64,000 nt of DNA from Octopus vulgaris (Eukaryota). The notes beneath the pieces were generated by a model that worked only from the letters and a program-made list of their open reading frames with translations, made no database searches and was not told the DNA's origin. The DNA lies in the NCBI GenBank assembly GCA_951406725.2, contig OX597831.1:48980001-49044000 (forward strand). Reading direction: 5' to 3'. Below, piece by piece: positions 17,511 to 42,100 of the stretch; position 1 is the first letter of the stretch; every line of letters starts with the position of its first letter. Position numbers and translations under genes: made by a program.

Positions 17511-17706
17511 GTGTTTCAGAATATTACCAACACAATCTTTTCCATTTTCTCCATACTGTTCTTTCCATAGAAACTCATCAAGGTACGAGTCCACCATGGT
17601 GGAATGTACCCCCATCATCATTTAAAATTTTCTTTTTGCATTCTTCCAGTAACGTTCCACAGAATTTGTGTGTACACCTGTTAGCGGATCCACAAAATTC
17701 CGGGAC
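17511..17706 (-). pseudogene. Merlin/ISXO2 transposase C-terminal fragment
   Basis: NFVDPLTGVHTNSVERYW...SYLDEFLW. Confidence 0.75.
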
Positions 17707-17889
17707 CACTCTGCGATACAAGTACCCGTTTCTTATACTCCAATAATGTTTTACTTCCTTTACATAATTGTTTCTTGAATGTATGTTTATATTTCAATGA
17801 AACAAGATATTACTTATACTGGGCATCAAACAACTAGTCATACTACACTGGTATAAATACAGATATCGTGTGTACATGCTGTATTTGCC

Positions 17890-18338
17890 CCCCCCCCCCA
17901 TTGACAACTGGTGCTGGCTACTTTTCATCTTTGTAAAAAAATAGAAACCATTGTGCGTAATTTGGGGGAAGATTTTGCTGTTATATCTAGCATGCCTAAC
18001 GATCATGTAAGATATTCTTTTGTTGGCTCGTTTTGTGTAGTAAATGTATTACAGTAAATACCTTTATCTGTAAACTTTCGAATGAAACTGGAATTGTCAC
18101 CTTTGTTCCTTTTGCCTTTACTGTTGTATTAAAAAAGGCGATAATTTTTAAATTTCATAATACTTAAAGAAATTTAAGCATTAAATTAACCACATCATTT
18201 AATTAGAAATAATTAGTTGTAATAGTTGAGCTATAATGTATATGATGATATTTAGAGAGAAATTAATATTTCAATGTAGTATTAGATGCGACATCAGTGA
18301 ACTTACAATGCAAATATTTTATATATGAGATTGGTGAA
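17890..18338 (+). promoter_or_regulatory. Orphan (fifth) U1 upstream flank with no U1 body
   Basis: Colinear with about 420-866 up to GAGATTGGTGAA; keeps ATCAGTGAACTTACAATGCAAATAT at 18293-18317. Confidence 0.85.
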
Positions 18339-18349
18339 GTCAGAACCTC

Positions 18350-21300
18350 AGTGTCGGTTGCTTTATTTTTGTTGCGCGTATATTTCAATTGGTGTCTATT
18401 TGTTAGTGTGAGTTCGTCTCTGTGTTTTTTGTGTCATTTGAACTGTTGTCTTGTGACATACAGTAATTTTCACCCTAAGGGGCAGAAAATTCCTGCATTT
18501 ATAATTATTTCTTGTCAGTTGCGACAAGGTTATTTATTTTTTGGATACGATGGAGTGTGACCTTGTGTCAAAAAAGGATTTTCCCCGAGATGGGAACAGT
18601 TAAAAATATCGGAAACGAAACGGTCAACAAGGACAAACAAAGCTTTTCAGCTGCAGTAGGTGGCAAAGTTATCGAACTGGAAGTAGTAATGGACAAGCTC
18701 TTCCAGTTCAGACAATACATTGTAAAAAAATGGCAAAGAGACTAAGCTGGTACCGCCCCTGGAAACTGTCCAGGCTATACGAGAGAAAACTGTCGTATAC
18801 AAGGTATTCAACATCAAGGAGAAGAAAATTGCAGAGGTGAAGAACGAAGTGGTGGGACGATGCATGGCTCCCATCTGGAACAAAGTACGCTATGTTAGCC
18901 GAGATGTGCGAAGTGCTACAGTTGAAGCGCAATTCGAGTCGGCTAACGTAGCAAAGGAGATATCCACGAAGACTCTCAAAAATGATGAAATTATGTTGTT
19001 ACCGACTTATTTAGGCCGGCGAACTGCTAAAATTAGTTGAGGACATACCTGCCGGTTATGATGTGATGTGGGTAGCAACAGCAGTCGTGTATGACATGGA
19101 AGCTAAGGTATTAATACTAAGCATGAGGATGAAAGAAGAGACGAACTGGAAGGGTCAGAGTTTGGAGATGGTTGTTCAAGGGGACAACAAAACCCTTGAA
19201 AGTTTGCCCGACAGGATCAATGTAGGGGAGGGACACACAATTCGTGTGTCGGTGGAGGGACGTAGGCCCAGATGCTTTAAGTGTGGGCAGAAAGGCCATG
19301 TTCGCTCTACTTGTACCAAAAAAAAAAACAACAGTTGAAGTCCCCCCCAAAAAAACTGCTGTGAGGCAGGAAAACGATGAAAACGAAAAGAAAAAACAAA
19401 TTGAAAAACAGAAGGAGGAGCAAAAAGAAAATGGAAGAAAGAATGAAGAACAGAAAAAAGAAGAGAAAAAACAAAAGGAAAGCGAACAGGTGGAATTTGT
19501 AACGGTGACGTACAAACGTAAAAAAGAAAGCACCCCAGACTCCCCTCCCCAAACAAAAAGAAAAACTGCAAGCACACATGAACAACAGCAAAAAATTCCC
19601 CAACCCCTCCCAGCTAACACTACCTTCGTAGGTCAGCATTTTAATAAACCCCATCCCCCTGTGTTAAAAGGTATAAAAAAATCGGAAAAAATTATATCGT
19701 TTAATGAGAAGAACAAGAGAGTTTTAAGACTAATCAAGGCTAATAGCCGCATGAAAATTCTTAAAATAACTGGAGGCGAGCCCGACGCGCGATATGCAAA
19801 AGTCGGAGAGGAGGAGTTTAAAGGAAAGCTCCTCCAGGAACATTTGGTAAACAAAAACATCAGATGTTACCCAGGAGGCAATAGCTGGGAAGTTAATCAT
19901 CAGCCCGGCAGCCACTCCTAACCAGAGACCAGTGGTAACGCCGGTGAAAAGCCCAGCAGCCTCGGGGAGTGAGAGGGAAGCTGGCAGACATAAACTGCCA
20001 TGACCCCTCTCTCAACCATAAATAATTTATTTTCTTTTACTCAATGATTAAGTTAGGTTGTTTGAATGTGCGTGGAATGGGGTCGAGATAGAAACAAGCT
20101 TGTTTTCTGAACGACCTCATGACACGGAATAGATGTTATTGTAACCGAGTCCAAGATGAGTGGACCTCAAGCGTTCTTGCCTCTTCTGTGTGGTTACGAG
20201 AAATTTATTTCTCCTAGCCGAGGAGGGGGAAGGGGTGTGGCAGTCTTTATCAGGAAGAGCTTGGACTTACAGATAAGTACCCTCTTTCTGGACCCAAAAG
20301 GCAAGCTGGTTGTACTAGATGTGACTCACGTGAGTAAACAGTCCTTCAGGTTGGTAGCTGCCCACGCTCCTGAGAAGTGTAGGCAGTCTGGTTTTTACCG
20401 GAACCTGGAGCACTTTCTGGTGACGTCTAAAACGTTAGTTTTGGTAGGGGACTTCAACACAGTTTTGGTAGGGGACTTCAACACTATCCTCAATGCGCGG
20501 GTCGATAGTGTGGGCTCAACTGATAGGAAAGGGAATCCTTGCCTCAAGGGTCTACTAGAGAGCTATAATCTAGTAGACCATTACTGACTGGATGAGCCGA
20601 ACGTTCCACAGTAGACATGGAGTAACAACGACGGCTCACACAGATCGTACCTAGATAGGGTATTCATTAAGGAAAGAGGTAAGAATAGAGTTAGTTGTCC
20701 ACGGATCACAAACTTGTGACGTGTGAGGTACACACAGATAAATGTCATAGATAGGGACTCGGATAGTGGAAAATGAACAAGTCTATTATGACTTGTGAAG
20801 CTTTCCGTACCTGGATTACGGAGTTAGTTCAGAGGGCATTATGTGGTACCATCATTAACAATAGATGGTGGTACACCTTCAACAGAGCCATTCGTTCAGA
20901 GTCCATTAGATTTAGCAAGCAGCTAAGTTTAGATAGGACTAGAATAGAGGGCGATTTAGTTAAGAACTTAGATGAGACAATGGAATCTGGCTCTACATCT
21001 AGAGTGTTGGTGGTGAGAACAGTCTTGTGCCGCCACCTCAACGCCAAGCATGAAAGCTGCAGAGTCAGAGCCAAGCTACGCGCAGGGAAATGAGAAGGTT
21101 GGAGAGGTTGGGAGGCAATCCTAATGAAATTGGATGCGGTAAGTCTGTTTCTGCCTATGCTGATGACGTCACCTTCATCGTGTCCAACGAAGCACAGCTA
21201 CCTCGTGTAGAAGGTGCTCTCCGAGGATACGAAGCGGTGGCAGGGGCAAAAGTTAACAAGGACAAGTCCACCGGTTTGGGCCTTGGAACCTGGAGGAACA

Positions 21301-22713
21301 AGCCGATATCGTCCAGTGTTGTTGGACACTGGACAGATGGTCCTGTTAAATTGCTTGGAGTTTGGTTTGGTTCAGATTCCCAGACGGAGAAAAATTGGAG
21401 CGAGGTAGTGAACAAGGTAGAAGCATTAGTACGGAAGTTGTCCGGAAGGCATCTTTCCTTGAAAGGGAGGGCGGAGGCATTACAGGTGTTTATAGCATCC
21501 GTCATCACCTACCACCTGACCGTCGTGCCTTGCCCCAATTTGTGGCTAAGCAAGTTGGAACGACTCCTTTTCTGCTTTTTGTGGAAGGGAGGAAAGCCAC
21601 TTGTAAGGCGCTCCGTGTGTTGCCAGGAACCGCTAAAGGGTGGGCTGGGGATGCCTTGGCTAATGATGTGTAGGCATGCGTTGAGGCTGAGACATCTCTG
21701 GTGCCACCAGGAGGGTGATAAGGTGTGTAGTCCACTGGCAGAGGAATTCTTCCCGCGACCGGACGCTTTGGAGAGATTTAAACCCGGTTTCATTAAAAGA
21801 CGGAACCTGACTTTATGACAGAAGGAGTGCCAACAGGCACTCTGGCTGATCCACAAGATGGGCAAGGCCGGCAGCGGGAATACCACCTCGGTGTTCTATA
21901 AAGGGCTGGTAGAGGCAAAAGATGACGACGTCCTAGGAGGGGCTCTGGGGTTCGATGAGAATCAACTCTCCAACCTGTTAAGAAGACTTTCAGGCTGGGG
22001 TATTTGGATAATTATCAAAAATCCCTGACTTGGCAGTGCTATAGGAATGCCTTACCTGTTCATGGTAAGTTATTTAGGTACAGAATGTCAGTGCCACCGC
22101 CGTGTCCAAGATGTGGGTTGGACGATGAAACCGTTCAACACGCGTTTGTACATTGTCGGGAGCTGTCAAGCTTGATAAGTTACGTAGAACACGTGTTGTC
22201 GCATCTGGGACGAGTACAGCTGTCAGCTGGTTCTATAATAAAGATGATACCGCCAACTGGACTCTAAAAGGAAGGTGAGGCTTGTTTTCACTGTACGGTT
22301 GCTGTACTGAAAGAGTGTGTGTGGAGAACCAGAATGGAAGGTTTTGTGACAGGGTGCTTTGTCTCTGGCCCCGGTCTGTTAAACTACTTCAGATTTCATC
22401 TGAAGAGCAAGATGGAGTTGGAGAGGAGGAACCTGCCACAGAAAGAGTATGTGAAATGTTGGAAGGATGTGATAAGAAAGGTGGGTGTGAGTAACCCAGC
22501 TTAATCATCAATGAAAGGAGAAAATAGTTGCCGGGTAAAAGTCTGTACTGTTCTATACTTACCTGGCTAATTAAAAAAAAAAAATTTAAAGTGTAGTATT
22601 ATATTATTCTAAATTTTTAAATACCATACGAACTACATAACTTTTTTGTAATTGTGTTTTGTCCTGTAGTGTCCTATCTTTGTATCGATTTTTATGATCA
22701 TAATAAAGATTTT
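18350..22713 (+). mobile_element. Tx1-clade LINE copy A (5'UTR, ORF1 ~18550-20018, internally deleted ORF2 20044-22503, 3'UTR)
   Basis: CFKCGQKGHVRSTC knuckle; APE motifs; SAYADDVT; CPRC..ETVQHAFVHC; ends AATAAAGATTTT. Confidence 0.9.
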
Positions 22714-22728
22714 ATACTAACCTGTCAC

Positions 22729-25350
22729 TTGTCTTGGGAATCCTTTTTCATCTGCGAATCAAGAAATTGGCTGCCTATTTTTGTTAAGTGAGTTCGTTTT
22801 TTGCTCATTGTTGTTTTGTGTTTCACACGTTAATTTGAACTATTGTCCGTTGTGTGACAATTTTCGCCCTACAGGGCTGAAAATTCTGTTTATGAACATT
22901 TTTATTACCTTTGTGGTAATTTTTGGAAAATTTGTTAAAACTTGTTTCTTGTCGTAATTTGACAAATGGAATTCGATTTAACGTCGAAAAAAGACTTCCC
23001 TGTGATGGGAAAAGGCAAACATAATAAGGATGTCGAGTTTTGAAAACAGTCTTTTTTGGCCGCAGTGGGCGGAACCGTAACTGAAGTGGAATTCAAAATA
23101 GAACAGTTGTTTGAATACCGGAACTTGGTCAAAAAGGAAGGCAACGAAATAAAACTTGTACCGCCGCAAGTGATATTACAAGAGATAAAGGCCAAGACAG
23201 TTGTGTACAAGGTGTACAGTATCAAGGAGAAAAAAATAAGGTGTTGAATAAAATTCGCTACATCAGTCGAGGTGCCACCGTTGAAGCACATTTCGACTTG
23301 GCTGATGTGGCAAAGGAGATTTCGTCAATGACTTTAAAAAATGAGGATATTATGTTATTACCCACCTATATGGGCAAAAGAACAGTAAAACTTTATGTGG
23401 AAGATATACCTAGAGGATACAATGTAATGTGGGCAGCAGCAGCGGTTCTGCATGACAGAGCAGAAAGTCTCAATTCTGCAGATGAAAAGGAAAGAGGTAA
23501 ACTGGAAGGGACAAGCACTCGAGCTCCTCGTTCAAGCCGAGAATAATGTACTGGAAAACCTGCCCGATTGGCTATTTATTGATGAGCGACTTTCAATGAG
23601 AGTAGCAGTGGAGGGGCGGAAACCCAAGTGTTTCAAATGTGGTGAAAAGGGTCACGTCTGCTCCAACTGCGTAAAAAAAAGAAAATCAGTGAAGCCCCTC
23701 CTCAAAGTGCTTCAAATACAGAAAAAGAGGAGGGGAAAAAGGATCCCAAGACTGCAACAAGGGATAAAACCGGAACAGAAGAAAAGCAAGATAAAACGCA
23801 AGAACCAATGAATTTCACACAAGTAACATACAAAAGAAAAAAAGAAAATACCCTGGACTCCCCACCCCAAACAAAGAAAAAAACAGCAAACACTGCAGAG
23901 ACACATCCAAAACAAATTCCCCAGTCCTATCCCCAAGGCACTGTGTTTGTTGGAACACAGTTCGCCAAGCCCCACCCCATAAAACAAGATCCGAAAAAAT
24001 TGTTAAAAAAAGAATGAAAGAATTGTGGCATTCGATGAGAGGAACAATAGAGTGTTCAAACACTTCAAATTCTCAAAACTTAAGTTATTTAGCAAGTCTG
24101 CAGACACCAAGTCAACCACTCGTTTTGCTAAAATAAAGACGAGTGGAAAGAGAAAACTTTTCAAGAACATTTGAAAAATAATTACATTAGAGATGTAAGT
24201 AACGAAATACTGGAGGGCAAACTAACTATAACCCCGGCAACCACACCTACCCAGAGATGTGGCAACGCCGGTTAAGAGCCCTGCAGTTACGACCATAAGG
24301 GAGGAAGAAGAGGAAGCATGCAGACTCAAACTGCCATGCTCCCTGTCCCAATCATAAGTAAAATTTTTTTTCTCCGTCAATGGTCAAGTTGTGAATGTGC
24401 ATGGAATGGGGTTGAAATGGAAACAAATTTGTTTCCTGCATGACCTCACGACACGCGGAGTGGATGTGGCTAAATGAGTCCAAGATGAGCGGGGCCCAAG
24501 CGTTCTCGCCTCTTCTGAATGGTTTCGAGAAATTTATTTCTCCTAGCCAAGGAAGAGGAAGGGGTGTGGCAGTCCTTATCAGGAAGAGCTTGGACTTGCA
24601 GGTAAGTACTATCTTTCTGGACTCAGAAGGTAGGCTGGTCGTTCTGGATGTGACACATGTAAGTAACAGTCCTTCAGGTTGGTGGCTGTCTATGCTCCTA
24701 ACGAGTGTGGGCAGTTGGGTTTTTTTGGGGACCTGGAGCACTTTTTAGCGACGTCGAAAATGGTAGTTTTGGTAGGGGACTTTAACACTATCCTCGATGT
24801 ACGGATCAATAGTGTTGGTTCCACTGATAGGAAGGGGAATCCTAGCCTCAAAGGTCTACTAGAGAGCTTTAATCGAGTAGACCATTACTGACTGGATGAG
24901 CTGAATGTTCCACAGTGGACGTGGAGTAACAATGACAGTTCAAAAAGATTGTATATAGATAGGGTACTCATTAGGAAAAGAGATAAGGATATGTTTAGTT
25001 GTCCAGTTTCACATTGTGCCTTCAACGGATCACAAATTTGTGACTTGTGAGGTGCAATTAGATAAGTGTCATAGACAGGGACCCTCGAAGGGTAGAGCGG
25101 AGGTGGTGCAGGTGTTTATAGCATCTGTAATCACCTACCGCCTGTTTGTTGTACCTGCCCCGATTTTTGTCTAAACAAGCTGGTACGACTCTTCCACTTT
25201 TTGTGGAGAGGGGGAAAGCCACTTGTGAGGTGCCCCGTGTGCTCTCAGGAATCACTAAAGGTGGCTTGGGGATACCATGGCTAATGATGCACAGACATGC
25301 ATTGAGGCTGACACATCTCTGGTGCCACCTGGAGGGTGATAAGGTGTGGA
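22729..25350 (+). mobile_element. Tx1 copy B (5'UTR, ORF1, APE, deleted ORF2)
   Basis: CFKCGEKGHVCSNC; APE motifs; 5'UTR hairpin shared with copies A and F. Confidence 0.85.
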
Positions 25351-26380
25351 GCCAACAAAAGGAAAAAATCCAACACCCCGGACTCCCCACCCCAAACAAA
25401 AAGAAAAATAAATGCAGACGAACAACACAAAAAAATTTTCCAAACCCACCCTGCTGGTACTACGTTTGTAGGACAGCATTTCATTAAACTCCAACCCCCA
25501 ACTTTAAAAGGTTTTAAAAAAACAGATAAGTGTATAGCATATAATGCGAAAAATGAGAGAGTGGTGTGGTTTATAAAAGCAAGATCTCACATCAAATGTT
25601 TTAAAACCACAAAAAAAGACCCTGAATGGAAATACGCAACGGTCGGCGAGGAAGAGAGACTCTTCCAACTGCATGTGAAGGACAATCTCATCAAAGATGT
25701 CACCCAGGAGGTGATGGCTGGGAAAGTGCACATCAGCCCGGCAGCCACTCCATCCCAGAGCCCGGTGGCAACGCCGGTGAAATGCCCAGCAACAACGGAG
25801 AGTGTGGGGGAGGCAGGCAGACATAAGCTGCCATGCTCCCTCTCACAACCGTAAGTAGAAAACTTTCTTCTTTCATTGATGATTAAGTTGGGCTGTATAA
25901 ATATGCGTGGAATGGGGTCGAAATGGAAACAGGCCTGTTTGCTGAACGACCTCACGACACACAGAATAGATGTAGCCATTGTCACCGAGGCCAAGATGAG
26001 AGGACTACAAGCGTTCTCGCCTCTTCTGAATGGTTACGAGAAATTTATTTCTCCTAGCCGAGGAGGAAGTGCAGGCGTGGCAGTCCTTATCAGGAAGAAC
26101 TTGGACTTACAGGTAAGTACTGTCTTTCTGGAACCAGAAGGCAGGATGGTTGTACTAGATGTGACTCATATGAGTAAACAGTCCTTCAGGTTGGTAGCTG
26201 TCCATGCCCCTAAGGAATGTAGGCAGTCTGGTTTTTACCGGGACCTGGAGCACTTTCTATTGGCGTCTAAAACGTTAGTTTTGGTAGGGGACATCAATAC
26301 TATCCTTGATGCACGGGTCGATAGTGTGGGCTCAACTGATAGGAAAGAGAATCCTTGCCTCAAGGGTCTACTAAGATAGA
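25351..26380 (+). mobile_element. Tx1 copy C fragment (ORF1 C-terminus and APE)
   Basis: TPDSPP..LPCSLSQP stop, then MIKLGCINMRG. Confidence 0.85.
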
Positions 26381-28675
26381 ACCACCACCAGAAACATTAA
26401 ATGCTATCCGCGAAAAAATTGTAGTGTACAAAATTTACAATTTAAAGGAAAAAAAATCAGTGATGTAAAATACGAAGTAATCAAAAGGTGCTTGGCACTG
26501 ATATGGGGAAAAATACATTACGTTAGCTGAGGAGTGAGAAGTGCAACAATTGAAGCTCATTTCAACTCGGCTAGTGTAGCAAAGGAAGTTTCAACGCAAA
26601 CGTTGAAAAACGAACTAATTATGCTGCTGCCCACTTACTTGGACCGCAGAACGGCTAAAATAACAGTCGAAGACATTCCAGTCGGTTTTGACATGATGCG
26701 AGTGGCTGTGATTTTCGACGTGGAGCAGAAGATAACGATATTGAGCATGAAGAAAAAAGAACCGGACAATTGGAAGGGACAAATTCTTGAAATGGTCGTC
26801 CAAGCGGAAAATTCAACACTTGAAAATTTGCCAGATAGGGTTTTCGTGGGGGAGGGGCACACCATCCGTGTAGCGGTGGAGGGACGTAGGCCTAGGTGCG
26901 TCAAGTGCGGGCAAAAGGGCCACGTTCGCTCTGCCTGTATTAAGAAAAAAACGGGTGACGCCCTTCCTCCAAGTGCTGTGAAAATCACAGAAGATAAAAA
27001 ATAAAACTGTAATGACTAAAGAAACCAAAGGAAAGAAACAAAGCGAAAACGAAAAGGAGGAAAATAAAGAAAAACAAAAAGGAGAGGAAGATAAACAAAC
27101 AGAATCTGAAGAAATGGAGTATACAACTGTCACAAATAAAAGGAAGAAAACTCATACCCTGGACTCTCCACCCTAAACAAAAAAGAAAAATAATACAGAT
27201 GAACAAAATAAAAAAAAAATTCCCCAATGGCACTACTTTAATTGGCCAGCGATTCACCATACCCCACCCTCCAACATTCAAAGGTCTTAAAAAAACGGAC
27301 AGAATAGTTATGTACAATGTGAAAAACAAGAAGGTGATTCATTTAATCAAAGCCCACCTGCGTATAAAATCTTTTAAAAGTGCTGACAACGAAACTGATT
27401 TTCGTTACGCGAAGGTCGGTGAGGAGGAGTGGAGAGAGAAGCTCCTCCAAGACCACATAAAAGAGAACCAAATAAGAGACGTTACACAGGATGTGATAGC
27501 TGGCAAACTAATCATCAACCCGGCAGCCACTCCTACCCAGAGCCCGGTGGCAAGCCCAAGAAAGAGCCCAGCTGAAGCGGAAAGCGTGAGGGAAGCTGGC
27601 AAACAAAAAGTGCCATGCTCCCTCTCACAACCGTAAGTGACTTCTTTTATTTTTTTCTATGATTAAATTGGGTAGTTTGAATGTGCGTGGAATGGGGTCG
27701 AAATGGAAACAGGCTTGTTTGCTGGACGGCCTCATTTCACATAGAAGAGATGTGGCTGTGATCACTGAGTCCAAGATGAGGGGACCTGAAGCGTTCTCAC
27801 CCCTCCTCAATGAGAGGCTGGATGCTGTGAGGGCCCAATCACTCCCGCAGAGGTAACAGAGGTGCTGGTCGAATGCGCAGGAGAAAAGTCTCTGGGACTG
27901 GATGGTCTGCCATACGAGTTTTATCATTCAATGCCGGACATGTTTGGAGAATTTATATCCAGTGTCTATGCAAACTGACAGCAGAACAGGAGAATTCCCA
28001 GTACAGTGAGACGGGGAGTTGTGATGCTGGTCCAGAAAAACCCAAGCAAGGGGGATAATATCAGTAACTACAGGCCCATAACTCTACTTAATGTAGAGTT
28101 AAAGATTTTGGTCAAGGTGTTAGCAAAAAGGTTGACGGTTGTCATGGAGAAGCTTGTCGGGAAGGCACAGACTTGTGCAATCCCAGGCAGGTCGATCCAG
28201 GACTAACTTCATCTTCTCCACTACACCTTAGAGAGGGCAAAGGAGGAGGGGCATTGATGCACTTGGACCAGAGTAAAGCATTCGATACGATAGACCACCG
28301 GTACCTGGGGTCAGTCCTCGATGTGGTTGGGCTAGGCCCTGGTTTTCGCGGGTGGATCGCCACAATGTATAGTGGCATCAAGTCCACCTTCCAGATAAAC
28401 GGTAACCTAACGGAGCCGTTTTCAATTAAGCGGTCTGTTCGTCAAGGGTGCCCCTTGTCTCTGATACTGTATGTTTTGACCCTGGAGCCATTGCTGAAGA
28501 GGCTGGAGAAGTTAGGTGGCAACCCTAATGAGATTGGATGTGGTAGGTTCACTACTGCTTATGCGGACGACGTTACTCATCGTGTCTAAAGAAGCACAAC
28601 TACTTTGTGTAGAAGATGCTCTCCAAAGATACAAAGCGGTAGCAGGGGCAAAAGTTAACAAGGACAAGTCCATTG
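26381..28675 (+). mobile_element. Tx1 copy D fragment (ORF1, deleted ORF2 with RT core)
   Basis: CVKCGQKGHVRSAC; NYRPITLLN, DQSKAFD, VRQGCPLS, AYADD. Confidence 0.85.
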
Positions 28676-30975
28676 GTTATTTGTGAAAAATTTCTTTTTT
28701 CTTGTCATTTGTGACAAGTTCCTTGTTAACGTCAAAAACAGATTTTCCCGAGATGGGAGAAGGTAAAAAATGGCTACACAGGCGAAGTAAAGTTTTTCTG
28801 ACAGCGTAGGCGGCAGTAGAACTGGAAGAGGCAATGGAAAAGCTCTTCCAGTTCAGAAAATTAATTAAAAAAACCAGTGAGGAAACGAGATTGATACCAC
28901 CCCCTGAAACCATGCAAGCAATCCGCGAGAAGACGGTGATCTACAAAGCGTACAATATAAAAGAGAAAAAAATAGCAGACGTAAAAAATGAAATAGAACG
29001 TTGTATGGCGCCAATTTGGAATAAGGTTCACTACGTTAGCCGAGGAGTGAGAAGCACTACGATAGAAACACATTTCGAGTTGGCTAATGTAGCAAAAGAA
29101 ATTTCAACACAAACATTGAAAAGTAAACACATCCTGCTGCTGCCCACTTACTTAGGTCGCAGAACAGCAAAAGTTACAATAGAGGACATACCCAGTGGTT
29201 ATGAAGTAATGTGGGCAGTAACAGCAGTCATTTTCGACGTAGAGGAAAAATTGACCATTTTGAGCATGAGGAAGAAAGAGGCGAGAAATTAGAAAGGCCA
29301 ACAACTTGAGATGATTATTCAAGCGGACAATTCTACGCTGGAAAGTTTGCCAGACAGGGTCTTCATGGGGGAGGGGCATACTATACATGTATCGGTAGAG
29401 GGACGTAGACCCAGATGTTTCAAGTACAGACAGAAGGGTCATAATTGCTCAGAATGCACAAAGAAAAAAACGGTTAATGCCCCTTCTCAAAACACAGAAA
29501 CAACAAAAGAAAGCACGGGAAAAAAACAAACTGAAATTCAAAAGAAGGAAAAGAAAAAGAATGAAAAACAGGAAGAAATGGAATACACAACAGTGGCAAA
29601 CAAAAGGGAAAAATCCAACACCCCGGACTCCCCACCCCAAACAAAAAAAAATAAATGCAGATGAACAACACAAAAAAAATCTCCAATCCCACCCCGCTGG
29701 TACTACATTTGTAGGACAGCATTTCAATAAACCCTACCCCCAACTTTAAAAGGTTTTAAGAAAACCGATAAATGTATAGCATATAATGCGAAAAATGAGA
29801 GAGTGGTGTGGTTTATAAAAGCAAGATCTCACATCAAATGTTTTAAAACTACAGAGAAAGACCCTGAATGGAAATACGCAAAGGTCGGCGAGGAGGAGTG
29901 GAAGGAGAGAGTCTTCCAACAGCATGTGAAGGACAATCTAATCAAAGATATCACCCGGGAGGTGATAGCTAGGAAAGTGCAAATCAGCCCGGCAGCCACT
30001 CCATCCCAGAGCCTGGTGGCAACGCCGGTTAAATGCCCAGCAACTACGGAGAGTGTGGGGGAGGCAGGCAAACATAAGCTACCATGCTCCCTCTCACAAC
30101 CGTAAGTAGAAAACTTTCTTCTTTCATTGATGATTAAGTTGGGCTGTCTAAATGTGCATTAATGGGGTCGAAATGGAAACAGGCCTGTTTGCTGAACGAC
30201 CTCACGACACACAGAATAGATGTAGCCATTGTCACCGTGTCCAAGATGAGAGGACCCCAAACATTCTCGTCTCTTCTCAATGGTTACGAGAAATTTATTT
30301 CTCCTAGCCGAGGAGGAGGTGCAGGCATGACAGTCCTTATCAGGAAGGACTTGGACTTACAGGTAAGTACTGTCTTCTTGGACCCAGAAGGTAGGCAGGT
30401 TGTCCTGGATGTAACTCACGTGAGTAAGCAGTCCTTCAGGTTGGTAGCTGTTTATGTTCCTAATGAGTGTAGGCAGACTGGTTTTTATCGGAACCTGGAG
30501 CACTTTCTAGTGATTTCTAAAATGGTAGCCTTGTTAGGGGACTTCAACACTATCCTCGATGCACAGGTTGATAGTGTTGGCCCGACTGATAGAAAAGGAA
30601 TCCTTGCCTCAAGGCTCTACCAGCGAGCTTTACTCTAGTAGATCGTTTTCGACTGGATGAGCCAAACGTTGCACAGTGGGCGTGGAGTAACAATGACGGC
30701 TCACGCAGATCGTATATAGATAGGGTATTTGTTAAAGAACGAGATAGGAATAGCGTTAGCTGTCCACAATATTCTGTCGTGCCTTACACGGATCACAAAC
30801 TTGTGACATGTGAGGTACATGTAGATAAATGCCATAGACATGGTCCAGGGTACTGGAAAATGAACAAGTCTATTTTGACCTGTGAAGCTTTTTGTACCCG
30901 GATTAAGGAATTATTCCAGAGGGCATTATGTGGCACCATCGTTAATAATAGATGGTAGCTCGCCCTAAAGATTTT
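28676..30975 (+). mobile_element. Tx1 copy E (ORF1, APE, joined by deletion to the terminal TAAAGATTTT)
   Basis: ORF1/ORF2 homology to copy A; last 10 nt identical to the copy A terminus. Confidence 0.85.
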
Positions 30976-30992
30976 ATACTTACCTGGCACAG
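30976..30992 (+). other. U1 5'-end 17-mer at a Tx1-Tx1 junction (degenerate equivalent at 22714-22728)
   Basis: ATACTTACCTGGCACAG is identical to nt 1-17 of U1 copies 2 and 4. Confidence 0.85.
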
Positions 30993-33900
30993 ATTTTTCC
31001 TCGGATTACGTCGGATTATTTTACGCTGAAAGCTGTTATGTTAGTTCGTTCTGTTCTGGATTTACACGTACAATTTTTGGATTATTAACTTGTGGAACAA
31101 AGTAATTTTCACCCTTCGGGGTAGAAAATTTCTTTTTATATATGAACTATTAACTCAGTGTGGAATTAACTTTTATCTTGTCACTTGGATTTCAATATGG
31201 ATCTTGACTTAACGTCAAATTCTGATTTTCCCGAGATGGGAGAAGTTATAAATAATGGAAAGCAAAAGGATACAAAGGAGAAACAAAGTTTTTCGGAAGC
31301 CATTGGAGGCAATGTTATAGAACTGGAAGTAGCAATGGGGGATCTCTTTCAGTTCAGAAAGTTAATACAAAGGTATGGAGAAGAAACAAGATTTATACCG
31401 CCCCCTGAAACTTTACAAGCAATCCGTGAGAAGACGGTAATTTACAAAGTATATAACATTAAGGAAAAAAAATAGCGGATGTAAAAAATGAATTGGTAGA
31501 ACGGTGTATGGCGCCAATTTGGAACAAGGTTCGCTATGTTGGCCGAGGAGTGAGAAGTGCTACGATTGAAGTGCATTTCGAGTTGGCTAGCATAGCGAAG
31601 GAAATTTCAACTCAAACGTTGAAAAGTGTAGACATCCTGTTGCTGCCCACGTACTTAGACCGCAGAACAGCTAAGGTAACAATAGAGGATATACCAACAG
31701 GTTACGATGTAATGTGGGCAGCAACAACATTCATATTCGACGTAGAGGAGAAATTGAACATTTTAAACATGAGGATGAAAGAGGCAAAATTTTGGAAAGG
31801 CCAGCAGCTTGAAATGATCGTTCAAGCAGACAATGCAACGCTGGAGAGCTTGCCAGACAGGGTCTTCGTGGGGGATGGACACTATGCGGATATCAGTGGA
31901 GGGACGTAGGCCCAGATGTTTCAAATGTGGGCAGAAGGGTCACGTTCGTCCAGAGTGCAAAAAGAAAAAACCCGTTAATGCCCCCCTTCAAATGGCTGTG
32001 GAGAACAAAGCAGACATCACAGCAACAACAAAAGAGAACACCCGGAAAAAGCAAAATGAAAGTCAAAAGGAGGAAAAGAAAATGAATGGAAAACAAAACG
32101 AAAACGAATAGGAGGTGGAAAATGATTTATCAAATAGAAAAGAACTGGAAGTAATGGAATATACGACTGTAACCAACAAAAGGAAGAAATCCAATACCCC
32201 GGACTCCCCACCCCAAACAAAAAGAAAAACAAACGCAGAATAACAAAAAAATTATCCAATCCCACCCCGCTGGCACTACTTTTGTAGGCCAGCATTTCAT
32301 TAAACCCCAGCCCCCAACTTTAAAAGGATTCAAAAAAACAGATAGGTGCATTGCTTATAATGCAAAAAACGAGAGAGTAGTTTGGTTCATAAAGGCGAAA
32401 TTAAACAAAATGTTTCAAATCATCGGAAAAAGACCTGAATTAGAGGTATGCGAAGGTTGGAGAGGAGGAGTGGAAGGAGAGACCCTTCCGACTACACGTG
32501 AAGGACAACCTGATTAAAGATGTCACACAAGAGGTGATAGCTGGAAAATTGAATATTAGCCCAGCAGCCACACCAACCCAGAGCCCGGCAGCAACGCCGG
32601 TTAAATGTCCAGCAACAACGGAGAGTGTGGGGGAGGCAGGCAGACATAAGTTGCCATGCTCCCTCTCACAACCATAAGTAACAAACTTTCTTCATTCATC
32701 GATGATTAAGTTGGGCTGTATAAATGTGCGTGGAATGGGGTCGAAATGGAAACAGGCTTGTTTGCTGAACGACCTCATGACGCACAGAATAGATGTAGCC
32801 ATTGTCACCGAGTCCAAGATGAGAGGAACCCAAGCGCTCTCGCATCTTCTCAATGGTTACGAGAAATTTATTTCTCCTAGCCGAGGAGGAAGTGCAGGCG
32901 TGGCAGTCCTTATCAGGAAGGACTTGGACTTGCAGGTAAGTACTGTCTTTCTGGACCCAGAAGGTAGGCTGGTTGTCCTCGATGTAACTCACGTGAGTAA
33001 GCATTTCTTCAGGTTGGTAGCTGTTTATGCTCTTAATGAGGGTAGGCAGACTGGTTTTTATCGGAACTTGGAGCACTTTCTAGTGACGTCTAAAACGGTA
33101 GTATTGGTAGGGGATTTCAACACTATCATCGATGCGTGGATCGATAGTGTGGGCTCGTCTGTTTTTTGACGTCGGTTGTGTTTTTTTACGCTCTGTAAAA
33201 TTCGGTAAAAAAGAAAAAAGAACAAAAAGTGAATTGTTGTTGTTGTCGTGGAATTTGAACGTCGGTTGGTGCGGTTTTGCGTCGCACTGGTTCTGTGTGT
33301 CGCACTGTTTCTGTTTGGGAGGCCGTTTTTCGGTCTGAGGCAACTATGAGCCGCCTCTACCAAACGGATGAGATGGAAGGGAGAAATTTCTCTGAAATTT
33401 CGTCGACATCTGAGGAGGAGTTGGAGAGAGCGGTGGAAAAGATGGAAAGCACCTACGCAGGAATAACGAAGAAGTCAACAGAAAAAGAGATAGACCTGGC
33501 TAAGTTGCCGGGCTTCCATGAGTTTATGAAGGAGGAGGAGAACGGAGAGGTCGAGCTGTTGCCTCCAGCAGGGCGCGGAGACTGGTTCAATCGTAGAACC
33601 ATTAAATATAAAGTATATATGAATGGAGGAAGAAAAATGGAAGTGATTAATATGGAAGCAATTGAAGAGGCTCTGAAGCAGACAGGAGAGGAAATCGTGT
33701 ACATGACAAGAGGATTAGAATATGGAACTATAATGGCACAATTTAGAAGCGAGAAAGTTGCCAGGAATATAGCAGCCAAGGTGGTGAGGACGGAAAAAAT
33801 TCACTTGTTCCCCTCGTATTTAAATAGCAGGACCACCAGAATTAGGGTGGAGGGAATACCTCCACACCTAGAGGGCGAATTTATAACGGCTGCGGTAATC

Positions 33901-36332
33901 AAAGGAAACGAAGATAAAGTGGACATCCTCCACGCCATTATGAAATATGAAGGCGTGAGAGGTGCCACATTAGAAATGAACATACAGACGGAGGCGGAAG
34001 TAATAGAAAAGCTGACGGACAGTATAAAAACTGGGAATATTATTATGAGAGTGTGGGTGGAGGGTAGGGCGCCCAGGTGCTATAAGTGTGGCCTGAGGGG
34101 TCACATAAGAGCCTACTGCCCTCCCCCACCAAAGGAAAAGGAAATCGCGGCGGAAGCCCCAAAAGAGGAAGAAACTAAAGAGAACCAAACAGAAAAGGAA
34201 ACGACAGAAGAGGAGATGCAGCAAGAGTGGGAAGAAGGCAGAAAGAGAAAAAGAAAAACTGTGCGAAGCCCCAACCCACCCCAACACCACCCACACCCTT
34301 GGAGTCCCATCCTTCCCCTGCAAACAGTGATTCCACCCACTCCCCGCCTACAAGAAAAACAAAAACAGACACACAGAACAAAGAAAGTCCCAAGACCCAC
34401 TTTTTATGTGTTATAAATGGGAAAGTCACACAAAACGCAAAAGGGGTGTTAAGCAATTGGTACGAACATGAAGATTGTAATTACACGGCTGTGGATGGTG
34501 ATGATATGGGCTTATTGGTGAGAAGGTTTGAGGAAGAGGGTGTGTGTTGGAAGTCAGTGCAAATGAAGGATGAATTGATAGAGAGGGCTGAAAGAAAAAT
34601 GAACGTTGTGATAGGTAAGCAAGGAATGCTAATTGGAAATGGGTGAAAGGACAGGTAAATGATGCTGACGGATGGGGCCGTTGGCATCGCTTTCATATAT
34701 CATTTTGCCCATATATATGTAATTGTGATGTTCTATGTCCCCAATGTTTGTAACGTCCCCTCTATGTAGCCCCTAGTGGGTAATAAAAAATCACTGATAG
34801 AAGAGGGAATCCTTGCCTCAAGGGTCGACTGACGAGCTTTAATCTAGTAGATCGGTTTCGAATGGATGAGCCGAGCATTCCACAGTGGACGTGGAGTAAC
34901 AATGATGGCTCACGCAGATCGTATATAGATAGGGTATTTGTTAAAGAACGAGATAGGAATAGTATTAGCTGTCCACAATTTTGTATTGTGCCTTACACGG
35001 ATCACAAACTAGTGACGTGTGAGGTACATGTAGATAGATGCCATAGACAGGGACCCGGGTACTGGAAAATGAACAAGTCTATTTTGGCTTGTGAAGCTTT
35101 CCGTAACCAGATTATGGAATTAGTCCAGAGGGCATTATGTTGAACCATCATTAATAATAGATGGTGGATCGCCCTCAAAAGAGCCATCCGTTTGGAGTCC
35201 ATTAGATTTAGCAAGCAGCTAGTTTAGATAGGACTAGAATAGAGGGCGAATTAGTTAAGAACTTAGACGAGGCAATGGAATCTGGCTGTACATCTGGATT
35301 GTTGGCAGCGAGAACGGTCTTGTACCATCACCTCAGCACCAAGCATGAGGGGTGTAGAGTCAGAGCTAAGCTACATGCAGGGAAACGAGAAGGTATTAAC
35401 GATGCCGGATGGGCCCGTCGTGAGGAGAGTCAGAAGGGCAAAAAGTCCTCTATTAAGTCTTTAACTGACGAACAGGGTCGCAAAATCTATGGACAGGAGG
35501 AGATGCAGAAGGTCTTTCACCAGCATTTCGCCCGGTTGTTTGGGGATGGCAGGTCTTAAAGGACTTCCTAGCCAGTGGGCCTCGATTCTCGGCATGTGAG
35601 GTGGAATGTTGTGAAGGATCGATCACTCCCATGGAGGTAAGAGAGGTTTTGGCCAAATGCGCCGGGGCTGGATGGTCTGCCCTATGAGTTCTATTGTTGT
35701 ATGCCGCACTGGTTCAGGGATATACTGGCAGGCGTCTATGCAAGCTGGCAACAGAATGGGAGGATCCCCAGTTCTGTGAGCCAGGGAGTTGTGATGCTGG
35801 TCCAGAAAGACCCGAGCAAGGGGTATAGTATTAGTAATTATAGGCCCATAACTCTACTTAATGTAGAGTTAAAGATTTTGGCCAAGGTGTTAGTAAAAAG
35901 GCTTACAGCTGTCGTGGAGAAACTTGTCAGGAAGGCACAGACATGTGCAATCCTAGGTTGGTCGATCGAGGATAATCTTCACCTTCTCCGCTACACTATA
36001 GACAGGTCTTAAAGGTCTGTTCGCGATAAGTTATCTAGGCACGGAATGTCAGTGCCACCAACGTGTCCAAGATGTGGGTTGGATGATGAAACCGTTCAAC
36101 ACGCTTTTGTACATTGTCGGGAGCTGTCAAGCTTGATAAGTTACGTAGAACACGTGTTGTCGCATCTGGGACGAGTACAGCTGTCAGCTGGATCTATGAT
36201 AAAGATGATACCGCCAACTGGACTCGCAAAGGAAGGTGAGGCTTGTTTTCACTGTACGGTGGCAGTACTGAAAGAGTGTGTGTAGAGAACCAGAATGGAA
36301 GGTTTGGTGACAGGATCCTTTGTCTCTGGCTC
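30993..36332 (+). mobile_element. Tx1 copy F (5'UTR, ORF1 ~31197-32676, ORF2 from 32702, interrupted)
   Basis: CFKCGQKGHVRPEC; APE split by an insertion; start of RT; C-terminal zinc finger. Confidence 0.85.
33157..34790 (+). mobile_element. ORF1-only non-autonomous retroelement inserted in the copy F endonuclease
   Basis: Host sequence GGGCTC|..ACTGATAG is split; ORF from ATG 33346 with CYKCGLRGHIRAYC, one apparent frameshift, stop 34646; ends AATAAAAAA; no ORF2. Confidence 0.8.
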
Positions 36333-36334
36333 AG

Positions 36335-37130
36335 TCTAAAGCTGACTCCCCCAGAAGAACTGTTGAAAAGCTTAGCGAAGAGGACAGTAGTATACAGAAC
36401 GTTGTCTACGTCCTCAAACAAAATAGAGTTAGCCCCAACAGAAGAAATACAGGAATCCCTCGTGAATTTTAACAACTGACCACATTCTATACGTGGAAAA
36501 AAGTATGGCTCAGTGGAAGTAATGTTTGGCAACGAAGATGCCATAAACCAATCCACAGACCTGTTACGGACAACGAAATGGATACTACTTCTGACGTACT
36601 GTGGCAAATGCGTTGCCAGAGTGAGAGTTGGAAGAGTGCCCCCCCAAAATCAAGGAAGAATGGTTGGTAGCAGCTATAATGCACAATATGAAGGATGGGG
36701 TAGAGATCCTCAAGATAACGAGGACCCCAAAGGCCAATTGGTGGGGATATAGCCTCAAAGTGACTATGTAGGTATCTTTGGAAGACTTGCATAGGTGTAC
36801 AGAAGAAAGGTGAGGAATTGCAGCTGAATAGATATACAGACAAGCAAGAATGCGAAAAAATACAGACAGTCGAATTACAGTGGAGAGGAAAACTAGAAGG
36901 GAATGGAAGACGGAAAAAACATCAAGGGAAACAGAAACATGAAGAAAAACAAAACGAGATAGGACGAAAAAAGGTAAGTACGATAAATTTGCAGAAAAAC
37001 AACGGGAAAAAAAAGAACATGAACATTGTAAATTATGTTAAACAAAAAGAAAATAATGAAAAAAGAACTGATGAATGGACAAGTATTTAGAGTTATAAAA
37101 AAAAAAAGAAAAAAGTTTAATTTTCTGTGG
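36335..37130 (+). pseudogene. Decayed Tx1-type ORF1 fragment of a different subfamily
   Basis: RGKKYGSVEV, ARVRVGRVPP, then a K/E-rich tract. Confidence 0.55.
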
Positions 37131-37199
37131 TAAAAGGACACATATGAACGGTTAAATTAAAGGAAAAATTAAAGGAAAGGTCACAGTTTCGCATAGTAG

Positions 37200-38105
37200 C
37201 AAAACTGAAGGATACTTGCTGAATCACATGATGAAAGGGAAGCATGTCTCGATGCCCAATGCAACAGAAATCAGGCAGCGAGACTTGCTGAATCACTTGA
37301 TCAAAGGGAGGCATGTCTTGCTGCCGAGCGCATTCAACCACAACCAGACTGCAGAGCAGAGACAAGCTAGACGGTCTACAGCGTGACGAAAACGCCAGCA
37401 ACACCAGGCTGCTAAGAGGGATGAGTTCTGGTACAGGGCTGCCTTCACCTACGATCCTGCTAAAAACTATGCCAACAAAGTGATAATCTGAAAGACGGAC
37501 AAAGTTTGTTCTTCCTCTGGGGCCAAAAAGTGGGATTTCGATGCTCCCGGACTTTGCTGCTCTAAAGGAAAAGTCCGACTTTCACCGCTAGCTGATCCAC
37601 CTCAGGTTCTTCGAGAATTGCTTACAAGTCCATCTGACGGTGCTAAGCATTTTCATGAAAGAATTAATAGGTTTAATTTGTGTATACCAGGTTTAAAGAA
37701 GACCACCAAAACCCAAATGTGCCAGGACCTTCAACTACTGCTTCGACATCAACTGAAAACCCCGATGTCCCCAGACCTTCATGGGCTGTTACGAGAACAA
37801 TGATCGAAAACCCTGATGTCCCCAGATCTTCATGGGCTGTCACGACACCAATAACTGAAAACCTCGATGTCCCTGGACATAATCCTCCGGCACTGCGATA
37901 AAGACATGACTTTTGTTTCCGAATTACACTGATGTTATGATTGCTTGCAGTGCCCTCTCCTTTTCCCTCAAGGAGAGGATGGCTACTGCTTACAAATTAA
38001 AAAGGTTGATCCCACAACTCACACACCTCTTGACAAGGTTTCCTGCAAGGCATTTTATACCTATCGACTCACGGTGCGAGAAAACGATTTTAATTTAGTA
38101 CTAAG
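37200..38105 (+). pseudogene. Helitron RepHel N-terminal fragment with ~57-bp tandem repeats (about 37705-37880)
   Basis: AKKW..PGLCCSKGKVRLSPLADPP; QCPLLFPQGEDGY; VSCKAFYTYRL; parallels ORF 40532-42172. Confidence 0.7.
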
Positions 38106-39110
38106 GTTTACAACCCATTTGGAACAAAATAAAATATGTTGGACATGTGATAGAAAGTGCTACAGTGGAGGCACAATTCACTGACGAAAGTACAGCTAAA
38201 GAACTGTCTACACTGACACTGAAAAGTGAAGAGATAATTCTCCTGCCAACTTATCTAGGCAGGAGAACAGTGAAAATTAAAGTGGAGGAAATTCCAGCTG
38301 GTTTGGGTGTATTGGAAATTGCAGCAGCCGTATTATACGACATGGAAGACTAAATGTTCATTCTGCAAATACAGAAAAAGGCGGCCGAAAATTGGAAAGG
38401 CCAGTCACACGAAATGGTGGTCCAAGCCAGACCCAAAATTCTCGAAGGGCTTCCTGATAATGTTCATTGGGGAGGGGCTGAGTATGAAAGTGAGTGCTGA
38501 GGGACGTAAGCCACACTGTTTTAAGTGTGGAAAAAAAACCCACAGAAGAAATAGAATTTACAATAGTAAAATTTCAAAAAAGGAAGAAGGCTTCAGCCCC
38601 AGATTCCCCTCCCCATACACGAAAAACATCAAAAGCTACTATAGACATGCAAGGAAAAACTCCCCCACACCATCCGCATGTTAAAACCCATTTCCAAACC
38701 CCACTCCAAGACACTGAACAAAACTGTGTCATTTAATGATAACAATGCAGTTTTATCCAGAGTCATTCGAGCACATTATAGAACTCAAGTTTACAAAGCA
38801 AATAAAGACATGCCACCTTACATCTGGATAGCTAGGATGGAGGTAGGATTGTTCAACAAATTAAAAGCCAAATACGCAGATGACATAAAGGACGTGAGCC
38901 AAGAAATGGTCAGCAGGAGTTTTATAGCAAGTCCAGCAGCTACACCACAGAAGAAAAAGGATGGGGAGGAAGCTGAGTTCATGCAGCCCCTCCCCAAACA
39001 TAAAATGTAAGTACCATTTTCTGTGGAAATTAAGCTAGGATGCATAAATGTGTGTGGCCTAGGGTCAAAATGGAAACAACCATCTCTCCTGAACAAACTT
39101 AGGTCACTAG
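38106..39110 (+). mobile_element. Tx1 copy H fragment (ORF1 and start of ORF2)
   Basis: LLPTYLGRRT, EGRKPHCFKCG, SPAATP, IKLGCINV. Confidence 0.8.
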
Positions 39111-42100
39111 AAAAAATATACGGGAAAAGATGGAAGGACATGGAAAGGAGGTTGAGTATGAATGACTCGGCTTAATTCTGTACATGGTGAATTCATACGG
39201 TGTAGCCGGTGGACTTCCCAGCCAAAGTGTTAAATTCTAAATTCTAAATAATATATCTGTTATAAACCCAAACTCGAATATCAAAGTTTAAAAGGTTTTA
39301 ATTGACTAAAAATACAGCAATATACAATACAAAGATTGCTAAAATTGTAAGCAAAACCAAACTTCAACGCAATAACATTTTTATGCAGCTAGTTGCTACA
39401 TTCTTGACTGACTAAAATCAATGCTGAACATGTCGTCTCCAAACAGAACAGAAGTCTGCACAGTCGCACTGCAGGCATAGCACAGCAATCGAAACAATTA
39501 AAATCATGTGATCAAAACTAAAATCACAACATCTTTCCCCACTAAAGAGAAAAAGGAACAATTAACAAACAAAATGCAAAATACAAACATAACCATGAGT
39601 CAATCACAACGACGTAATAGTAAGGCTTTTCATAAGCGTAACACATCATCTTTATATATAAAACTGAAGTTGTGTGTGTGAGAGTCTGTCTCCTCCGATT
39701 TAGATTCCTAACTACTCCCACATTTTGCGGTGCAGTTTGACCAAAAGCGGGTATCTTATAGTCGTGATTCATATCGAGCCCTTCTGGGTATTAGCGCATG
39801 TCTATGAGTCTACGATGATAAAAAAATTTACTATTATTTTTTCGCATTTTTAATGCATTTTTTGCTTGGTTTATATAAGGGAAGTAACTCTCTAAAAATG
39901 CTTATATAGTTATTTCCCTTAGTTTTTTTCACATTTTTAATGCATTTTTGTTGATCAGCTGATCATTCATGCATAATTTTGCACGACTGCACGCTGACGT
40001 CATCTTGGAATATCGATTTTTCTCTTACATGCATTCACATGCAATTTAAACTCAAATTCGCTGACGCGCTGCTTAAATGTTTTCATACTGTTGTGTTTAT
40101 TAAATGAGTGTGAAATTGAAGCGTTCCCTGAAAAAAAATCAACATATTTTGATGGATAAAAATAAATTAGTAAAATTTAGGAAGAAAACCTGCATCTTTT
40201 TCAACTTATGACGATAAAAAGTCTTAAAAAATTGCAGAAAGATTGAATTATTCTTTTCATCGAAAACGTTGAAAGGCTCAATCGTTCGTAAGTTATTATA
40301 TTTTAACTTATTCTTGACTCGACCGAATAAAAAACCAAGTATTTTTTTATAAATGAATCAGCCTCTTAGGAAATGCCCCTGCTTAATTCAAATCAAAAAT
40401 ATAGAAATTTTGTTATAATGATTTGACTGAAAATTACAAGAATTGGTGTCTGACTGACTTATTAAATCCAATGTATTTTATTTTAAGATTTTATTGTTCA
40501 ATTTCTACTATTCGTTACTCTCGTTGTTGTTATGCCGAAAAGAAAAAGAACAGTTTTGACATTAACAAAGATGCAGCTCCAAAATAAAAGGCGGCTTAGA
40601 GCTGAATCTTCCCTTCAAAGACAGTCGCAGATTGCAGGGTGCTCTGCTGAAGTGAGGGCTGTGGCCATCGATGAGGGTTGTTTGAATAAAACAGATAGTA
40701 ACAATGATTTCAATGCACTTGCACATGCATTTGAAAGTTCTACCGATGTTTTACTTCCAGACATCGGTAATACTCCTTCCAGTTCACGTGTGTGTAGTGT
40801 TGTGAGTGAACAAGACCATAAACAAAGGCTTGCAAAGAAAGCAAAGGCCAAAGCTGCTGCTCGAGCTGCAGAGAGTGAAGTTGCGTGCTCACTTCAACAA
40901 AAGAAAGATGCTGTGGCCAAAGCGGCTGCTCGGGCTTCAGAAAATGAAATGCAGTGTTGTAATCAACTAAGAAGAAGAGCTACAGTCAACGCAAATGCAA
41001 GAGCTTCAGAAAATGATATCCAGCGTCAACTTAGACTGAATAAAAACGCTGAAACAACTGCAAATGCAAGAGCTTCAGAAAATGATGCCCAGCGTCAGCT
41101 TCAACTGAATAGAAACGCTGAAGCAACTGCAAATGTAAGAGCTTCAGAGACGACAGATGATTGCCTCAATAGACTGGGAGAAGTTATTCAATATAAAAGC
41201 AGAATACAGGGTATAGGTAGGGCATCTAAAACAAGATGGTCAATGAAGGCTTTTAATTATTACCCAAACAACAATTTTGCCTCGCATAAGGATTTTCAAA
41301 CAGGCTCAATGAGTAAAATATGTAGGTTTTGCAAGGCAAAAAAATGGTGTGGAGAGCCAATAGGAATACGTTGCTCTAATGGTAAGGTAAATTTACCAGC
41401 TCTCCGCGATCCACCTCAGCCATTAAGACTTCTTACAGGTACTCATTCGCTATCAAGGGGGTTTCTTAAGGATATCCGATACTATAATTGCGCTTTTCAA
41501 ATGACATCTTTCCGATCAGATTATCAACCAAAGGGCATATTTATGCCCACGATGAAAGTCCAGGGCCAGGTTTACCATTTTATTGGACTGTTGCAGCCTG
41601 ATGCCAACAAACAGCCTCAATGTCTCCAGGTCTACTTCATGCCAGATGTTTTGCAGCAAGCTTCAAGGCTAAATTCTTATGCCTTTCGAAATGAAGGTCA
41701 ACAAAGCTCCTCTGCAGACAACCAGAGACCAAAAGAGTACACAATAAAAGGAGAGGAGAGACTTGGACTCATTCTCGAACTTCAAGATATGCTACATAAT
41801 AATAACAGCTACGTTCAGAGTTTTAAATATGCATTAGAAGTAGCTCCTGCAGACAACTTCTATGTTGTCATTGATGCTGATCAGCGGCCGTCTGGAGAAC
41901 ATGCAGGACGCTACAACTCTCCTTATGTTAATGAGGTTACGATTATTCTAGCAGGTGACCCGCACGGCACACGTGATATTGTCCTCTCGCATAGTAAACA
42001 AGTTGTTAAGACTATATGTGATACACATAGGTCGTATGATGCACTTCAGTATCCCTTGCTTTTTGTTTATGGTGAAGACGGATACCATTTCGACAACGTA

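Follow-up and report, generated by a model that had tools for sequence, protein, structure and literature searches.

Transposable elements that insert in small nuclear RNA (snRNA) genes are few. As far as the accessible text of PMC4640811 goes, only Keno, Utopia, Dada-U1 and Dada-U6 were listed as such in 2015; the legend of a Tx1 target figure, in the available excerpt, names U2, U5 and 5S, and PMC13282606, in the sections at hand, only counts L1-Tx1 elements. Keno, a U2-specific member of the Tx1 clade, is an APE-type element without long terminal repeats (non-LTR) that resides in snRNA genes, like the lineage described here (PMC4494074, PMC4640811, available parts). According to these parts, however, it uses one fixed U2 site in common with Utopia, whereas our lineage is joined to the start site (+1) of U1, U2 and unrelated repeats. 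Dada-U1 likewise inserts in U1 genes, but it is a DNA transposon that creates duplications of 6-7 bp and reads an internal U1 site by sequence, as described in the available text of PMC8869645. The present analysis deals with 64,000 nucleotides of Octopus vulgaris (contig OX597831.1, positions 48,980,001 to 49,044,000, forward strand), here called the window. In this stretch the original prediction had seen, at 17890-39110, a candidate U1-specific family of Tx1 retrotransposons stacked head to tail at the 5' end of U1. The observation is real but overstated; the broader system that emerges has several targets and holds more interest than U1 specificity alone would.

On balance, we favour the following view. 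A Tx1-like lineage with an APE and a reverse transcriptase (RT) joins +1 of U1, U2 and hammerhead-type repeats about 58 bases past a proximal sequence element (PSE); its nick is likely positioned by the promoter complex or its open start site, and flanking RNA probably steers each sublineage back to its previous target. The position of the joint as given by motif spacing, the duplications, the tandem stacks, the target switches and the transport of heads, i.e., of target-derived 5' ends, to off-sites are observed.

The elements belong to the L1 group of long interspersed elements (LINEs): they have open reading frame (ORF) 1 and an ORF2 with APE, RT and a C-terminal zinc finger. The copy L051 contains PF03372, PF00078, PF13966 and PF00098; another, L153, has open frames of 512 and 1140 codons. 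The best PDB match of ORF2 is LINE-1 ORF2p (E 2e-65; R2, E 4e-23). A protein search yielded 59 ORF2 homologues with up to 58% identity; a metagenome scan for relatives found none. ORF1 contains PF00098, and its Atlas neighbours (0.90-0.92) have zf-CCHC and ZCCHC3-type RNA-binding domains. ORF1 of the Tx1 clade combines RNA-binding domains with a CCHC knuckle. A fixed site and a duplication of ~10-20 bp, as in target-specific Tx1 elements, are found as well, and the Tx1 label is our assumption from such features. A poly(A) tail is absent from the element, which always lies in the orientation of the promoter.

The spacing between promoter motif and joint can be read at many loci. An ATCAGT-type, PSE-like motif occurs at -56 to -61 in 59 of 67 upstream regions of U1, U2 and U5. 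Among the U1 genes (L017, L054-L060), we noted at least three promoter types with only this motif in common. The termini surveyed amount to 76, after 14 of 90 raw termini had been dropped as internal ORF2 look-alikes; 33 termini with a clear duplication of 10-18 bp and a non-tandem upstream flank, the flank start of L257 being set by hand, were scored with a matrix trained only on the U1/U2/U5 genes. The motif is seen at -61 to -56 from the start of the duplication in 28 of the 33 insertions and in 10 of 14 target clusters, with a background of 2.9% (P ~4e-13). Stricter thresholds leave 24, then 18 of the 33 insertions (6/14 clusters in either case). A separate observation concerns L210, where a PSE-like motif is found at -41, not -58; the shift of 17 nt equals a duplication length.

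The targets differ from each other. Repeat A is a tandem unit of ~360 bp with a non-canonical hammerhead core. Exact terminus junctions number 21 at this repeat and 36 at repeat B (control 0 for each). Ten of 20 target flanks tested adopt type I hammerhead topology (0-1 of 100 shuffles), and Rfam on flanks gave three HH9 matches, the best with E 3.6e-5, all below the gathering threshold; an Rfam scan of 20 flank loci showed only microsatellite-driven miRNA matches, also below gathering. Five heads have only 1-9 of 17 bases in common. The duplication comprises 17 bp in all seven copies at repeat A, 14-17 bp at repeat B and 14 bp at U2; across the lineage it ranges from 10 to 18 bp, with a mode of 17. 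The 5'-truncated copies L191, L203 and L251 also carry duplications, which shows that, on target, the head represents a genuine duplication.

The survey of snRNA genes for element joints covered U1, U2 and U5. An element end stands at +1 of U2 in two of 20 fetched loci (48 listed). On C3, a U2 locus reads promoter, U2 1-14, element, U2 1-14, element and complete U2, and on C2 repeat A harbours a tandem stack of five junctions. Regeneration of the target with tandem stacking, as proposed in the original prediction, is seen at U2 and repeat A. The U2 joints lie at +1; the internal site of the Keno type, presumably ~38 nt inside U2 and shared with Utopia, was not used in these loci. A distant family consisting of ORF1 only (ORF1 29% identical) uses the same sites: among its 19 other fetched copies, 17 bear repeat-B/C-type heads. 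U1 1-18 is present in one copy, which lies in a (TG)n tract.

How does U1 fit into this picture? The window is part of the main U1 cluster, with 26 U1 copies at 48.96-49.21 Mb of C18 (240 kb). We examined all 51 exact matches to a U1 15-mer: 40 are whole or long U1, seven lie in other repeats, one is a short U1 fragment, and three read U1 1-17/18 followed by an element. The pattern of a terminus followed by U1 exceeds chance: it occurs 12 times in the genome, eight times with the reversed control, and three of ten matches checked are element ends, namely both junctions of the window and one 40 kb to the right of them, all in the main U1 cluster. The latter locus (G000:C18:49049287-49051958) comprises a U1 promoter without its last 10 nt, a truncated element of 2.1 kb and a complete U1. 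Both promoter-side U1 junctions show a deletion of 10-12 nt in place of the U1 1-17 head.

A U1 head is also found away from U1. L051, a near-intact copy of 5.36 kb with U1 1-17 at its 5' end, sits between two U2 genes at a site without U1 promoter or U1 gene; its flanks are unique and have no more than ATACTT in common on the 3' side. Its 5' junction is spanned by contigs of runs X17 and X19 (two other runs, one study), and no empty-site contig was among the contigs listed. Most likely, the U1 head travelled there in RNA. A 17-mer that is a fixed internal part of the element and unrelated to U1 loci had been named beforehand as refuting the original prediction, and L051 goes half of this way. 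A degenerate U1-like head (11/15) without a U1 promoter is seen near 1935-1955, on the minus strand, in L181, which is related to element 1 of the window.

The relatives of the window elements mostly have other heads. Of 40 matches to the 5' untranslated region (5'UTR) starting at 30993, 20 were fetched and 18 were full and at least 89% identical. Only two of these 18 have a U1 head; the other 16 have another one and reside in repeat A. For the 5'UTR at 22729, 15 of 40 matches were fetched, and all 14 other copies carry the repeat B head. The seven copies seen with both ORFs open (L143, L144 region, L147, L148, L153, L154, L157) are without exception in repeat A.

Trees of the C-terminal half of ORF2 (38 copies) and of the 5' half (19 copies) tell the same story. 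In the former, the U1-associated copies (window element 1, L035, L051) branch successively below the repeat-A clade, and U2 copies are nested in the repeat-B clade. In the latter, the U1-associated copies again form a basal grade to the repeat-A clade, and a single U1 clade is rejected (p-AU 6e-62, for a grouping defined with the first tree already in view). Two target switches are very recent: a copy in U2 and another in repeat B show 97.1% identity over 5.5 kb, and the U1-headed L051 is 95.1% identical to the repeat-A copy L153, with 233 of 245 residues shared in the APE. Of the nine termini that the U1 sublineage has outside U1, six begin with ATAC, as opposed to none of the 65 others (p 5e-7). 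Judged from these sequences, the U1 sublineage is real, but it was a single stage of a lineage, and the members that are intact today have a ribozyme-type repeat as their target.

The events at the target may be pictured as follows. The bottom strand would be nicked at +1 and the top strand near +17, the nick being positioned by an snRNA-type promoter complex or by its open start site. The captured promoter would then transcribe head, element and downstream gene, a capture suggested by the missing poly(A) tail and the constant promoter orientation. The read-through 3' flank could pair with the primer strand, which would account for target fidelity and also for short U1-like microhomology at off-sites. 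After each insertion the promoter would be followed by a fresh +1 site, at which later copies of other subfamilies may stack. We tentatively, and with slightly less than even confidence, extend this scheme: an animal LINE lineage might read PSE/SNAPc promoters by position, be it via ORF1p or the open start, nick at +1, live on a stolen promoter and hop between U1, U2 and ribozyme repeats. U1-headed transcripts would then start with the exact U1 end that pairs with 5' splice sites, and the family that is now intact would have arisen when the lineage recently moved from U1 onto a ribozyme satellite.

Several facts do not favour promoter positioning. The sample of 76 termini is not random, the searches behind it having started from window sequence. 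Five of the 33 duplication-defined insertions lack the motif at -61 to -56, and the start sites of the repeats are those predicted from motif spacing. Hammerhead cores are often non-canonical, and ten of 20 flanks fall outside the pattern used. No element was found in 15 fetched U5 loci (26 listed). In the U1 sublineage, nine of 11 termini are off U1 and without duplications. A locus of the type promoter, U1 1-17, element and complete U1, as sought by the original prediction, was not among the 51 exact U1 15-mer matches, and neither was the simpler series of promoter, U1 1-17 and element. For this reason the duplication, although observed at U2 and the repeats, is only inferred for U1, where the proposed 15/17 nt agree with the lineage's duplication size (heads of 14-17 nt). 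Finally, the targets cluster on the tree, with 11 changes as compared to 20.7 after shuffling, and pure reading of position would not produce strong clustering of this kind.

The last point leads directly to the most viable alternative, RNA homing plus selection. An APE of loose specificity would cut at many places, read-through RNA would pair with the parent's target, and copies at +1 would come to dominate by gaining a promoter; a factor that positions the nick would be dispensable. The strong fidelity of sublineages on the tree is in line with it, and so are microhomology to the parent's target at off-sites, heads carried to off-sites (L051, L298) and the abundance of repeat A, whose contig depth is hundreds-fold that of the element in runs X15 and X17, a ratio that does not represent copy number. 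Yet each switch, from U1 to repeat A, from repeat B to U2 and to repeats C/D, would demand a chance landing on the same base behind a promoter. The heads of U1 and repeat A share just 5 of 17 bases, and elements 1 and 2 of the window, although derived from subfamilies with other heads, are at the U1 +1 position. We consider homing without positioning unlikely.

The classical idea of a sequence-specific Tx1 element, in which the APE of each subfamily reads its own target and a shared promoter simply reflects snRNA-like ancestry of the repeats, fares worse. Most target flanks begin with A-T/C-C or ATAC, and known Tx1 specificity has been attributed to the endonuclease in the available text of PMC4494074. 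Near-identical APEs, however, are found beside unlike targets, and the ORF1-only family occupies the same sites without any APE, though any APE could serve it in trans. This makes sequence reading an improbable explanation. A strictly U1-specific family, with every copy at U1 +1 and an intact stack regenerated by U1 duplications, could invoke the three terminus-U1 junctions in the main cluster and the existence of a U1 sublineage, but three junctions confronted with 57 at two repeats (36 + 21), 16 of 18 closest 5' ends with a non-U1 head, and both-ORF-open copies seen in repeat A only have largely refuted the strict form, to which we give hardly any credence; what survives of the original prediction includes insertion exactly at U1 +1 by a lineage for which U1 is one target of several. 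Template switching onto U1 RNA as a source of heads was considered and may apply to L298, yet it leaves the U1/U2 loci composed of promoter, element and complete gene unexplained.

We now turn to the window itself. Left of the array, the four U1 genes of the original prediction are borne out by Rfam matches (879-10073): on the plus strand 879-1042 (RF00003, 130 bits; promoter flank 472-870 in the flank map) and 4647-4810 (PSE-like ATCAGT motif at 4589, i.e., -58), on the minus strand 8218-8381 and 9910-10073. Between two of them lies an unrelated RT-bearing LINE fragment (1742-4375, minus). A diverged ORF1-like fragment with a 149-bp duplication (10719-12169) has a 96% inverted copy at the start of the window (5-408), which is linked to the U1 unit having been duplicated in inverted orientation.

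The array was said to begin behind a U1 upstream flank. An orphan U1 promoter flank is indeed preserved on the plus strand (17883/17944-18338; 83-85% identity to U1 flanks in self-comparison), with a PSE-like motif at 18293 (score 8.4) and a predicted +1 at 18351; its U1 similarity, however, ends ~12 nt short of U1 +1, and neither U1 1-17 nor a U1 gene was found downstream of 17883-18338. The stretch 18333-18352 resembles one head of element 1 relatives (L179, L074, L138, L182) that reside in other repeated targets without a PSE at -58. Mapped against an intact relative, 18340-39106 is a patchwork in which at least four subfamilies are represented by ~nine ORF1 starts. All its pieces are on the plus strand, as predicted, and form a same-strand stack; the pieces are, however, ~nine deleted fragments rather than a clean head-to-tail array, since at least nine internal fusions within 17890-39110 join ORF1 starts and none carries U1 sequence. 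No complete U1 was found at the right end of this array.

Element 1 (18340-22713, plus) is disrupted. It retains 5'UTR, ORF1, APE, the C-terminal half of RT, zinc finger and a 3'UTR ending in AATAAAGATTTT; ~920 bp of RT are deleted at 21097, and its 3' half takes a basal position in the U1/repeat-A clade. Its 3'UTR contains a stem-loop (22536-22567, plus; z -3.75 in the window, weaker in two relatives), the 3' strand of which (22555-22567) resembles U1 1-13. The idea that this U1-like 13-mer is a fossil junction was rejected, because it forms a stem-loop strand, varies among relatives and has no preceding terminus. Both U1 matches on which the original prediction was built exist, but only the one at 22714-22728 (plus, 13/15, preceded by TAAAGATTTT) stands behind a whole 3' end. 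TGTCAC, its final six bases, is also how copies of the next subfamily normally begin, and the U1-derived part may therefore be as short as 9-11 nt. Element 2 (22729-25083, plus; 5'UTR, ORF1, APE) represents a subfamily whose other copies are found at hammerhead repeat B. It is followed by fragments of at least three additional copies that are fused to one another (25084-30965, plus: RT piece; ORF1 end-APE; ORF1-APE start; RT piece; ORF1-APE-linker), and no U1 sequence was seen at their fusions.

The second junction (30966-30992, plus) consists of TAAAGATTTT and an exact U1 1-17 (30976-30992, 17/17). To its left, ORF2 breaks off at about residue 289, and only ten terminal-like bases follow in place of a 3' end; the join is most simply explained by a deletion at T-AAAGA microhomology. 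The U1-headed element 3 (30993-36329, plus) survives in three pieces without a 3' end (30993-33160, 34793-36006, 36017-36329) and is 93-97% identical to L051 and repeat-A copies. A member of the ORF1-only, non-autonomous family with an open ORF1 of 356 amino acids (33161-34790, plus), 33% identical to the autonomous ORF1, is nested in its APE. In the remainder (36333-39106, plus), unrelated DNA separates two further diverged ORF1 fragments (36333-36807, 38108-38953) and an APE start (39029-39106). The array is best read as an old stack behind one U1 promoter that was later scrambled by deletions.

A few other features deserve mention. In the APE coding region, CAGGTAAGTAC recurs as an almost perfect 5' splice site with complementarity to the U1 head (24599-24609, 26110-26120, 30360-30370, 32933-32943); as it is also present in non-U1 subfamilies, it possibly reflects coding constraint. 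Helitron-like material with STPR repeats, PIF1 helicase pieces and broken frames occupies 37100-38090 and 40487-47913. Older ORF2 fragments of the same lineage, 50-70% diverged, lie outside the array at 16119-17516, 48553-49018 and 52049-52845, the last two being separated by inserted DNA that contains an RT-like motif (49000-52050).

In the literature searched, which includes bioRxiv 10.64898/2026.07.22.740005 in its available part, neither a LINE targeting U1 nor position targeting at U1/U2-type promoters was found; Repbase and most subscription papers were outside the search, and a U1 family may appear in the tables of Tx1 targets compiled by Kojima. How target-specific LINEs change their targets is a long-open question. 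Two very recent switches between unlike targets, with intact copies on one side, make it directly testable, and precise insertion of a LINE at the start of an snRNA would be of interest to gene-insertion work.

Pieces of the system have counterparts elsewhere. Tx1L of Xenopus and the crocodilian Tx1-Mar likewise occupy a fixed position in another repeat and have non-autonomous partners, but their targets are DNA transposons, not hammerhead-type tandem repeats and snRNA genes with a common promoter motif (PMC4494074, available text). In the same text, SINEU resembles our elements in having U1-derived 5' heads on Tx1-mobilised elements; these heads, however, are long and added at 5' ends, whereas here the head measures 14-18 nt, the length of the duplication. 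Non-LTR retrozymes, tandem units of 150-400 bp with a type I hammerhead, and newt satellite 2 may be compared with the targets described here, where repeat A is a ~360-bp tandem unit and ten of 20 flanks fit type I hammerhead topology; an snRNA-type promoter has been reported for newt satellite 2 (PMC7229834, PMC2220036, accessible parts); they resemble the targets, not the element, and the likeness is one of predicted topology. Position-specific targeting as such is already known for Pol III genes. The Dictyostelium L1-group elements TRE5-A and NLTR-A and also Ty3 choose their position relative to a small-RNA promoter; Ty3 integrates at the start site, and ORF1 of TRE5-A binds TFIIIB (PMC5911963, available text). 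According to this text they depend on Pol III/TFIIIB at tRNA-type genes, in contrast to the PSE-like motif of U1/U2/U5-type genes considered here. The constant distance from a promoter element across unlike targets is nevertheless common to both (28/33 insertions and 10/14 clusters in our case). By analogy, the lineage would work like the position targeting of TRE5-A and Ty3, but it is built like a Tx1 element.

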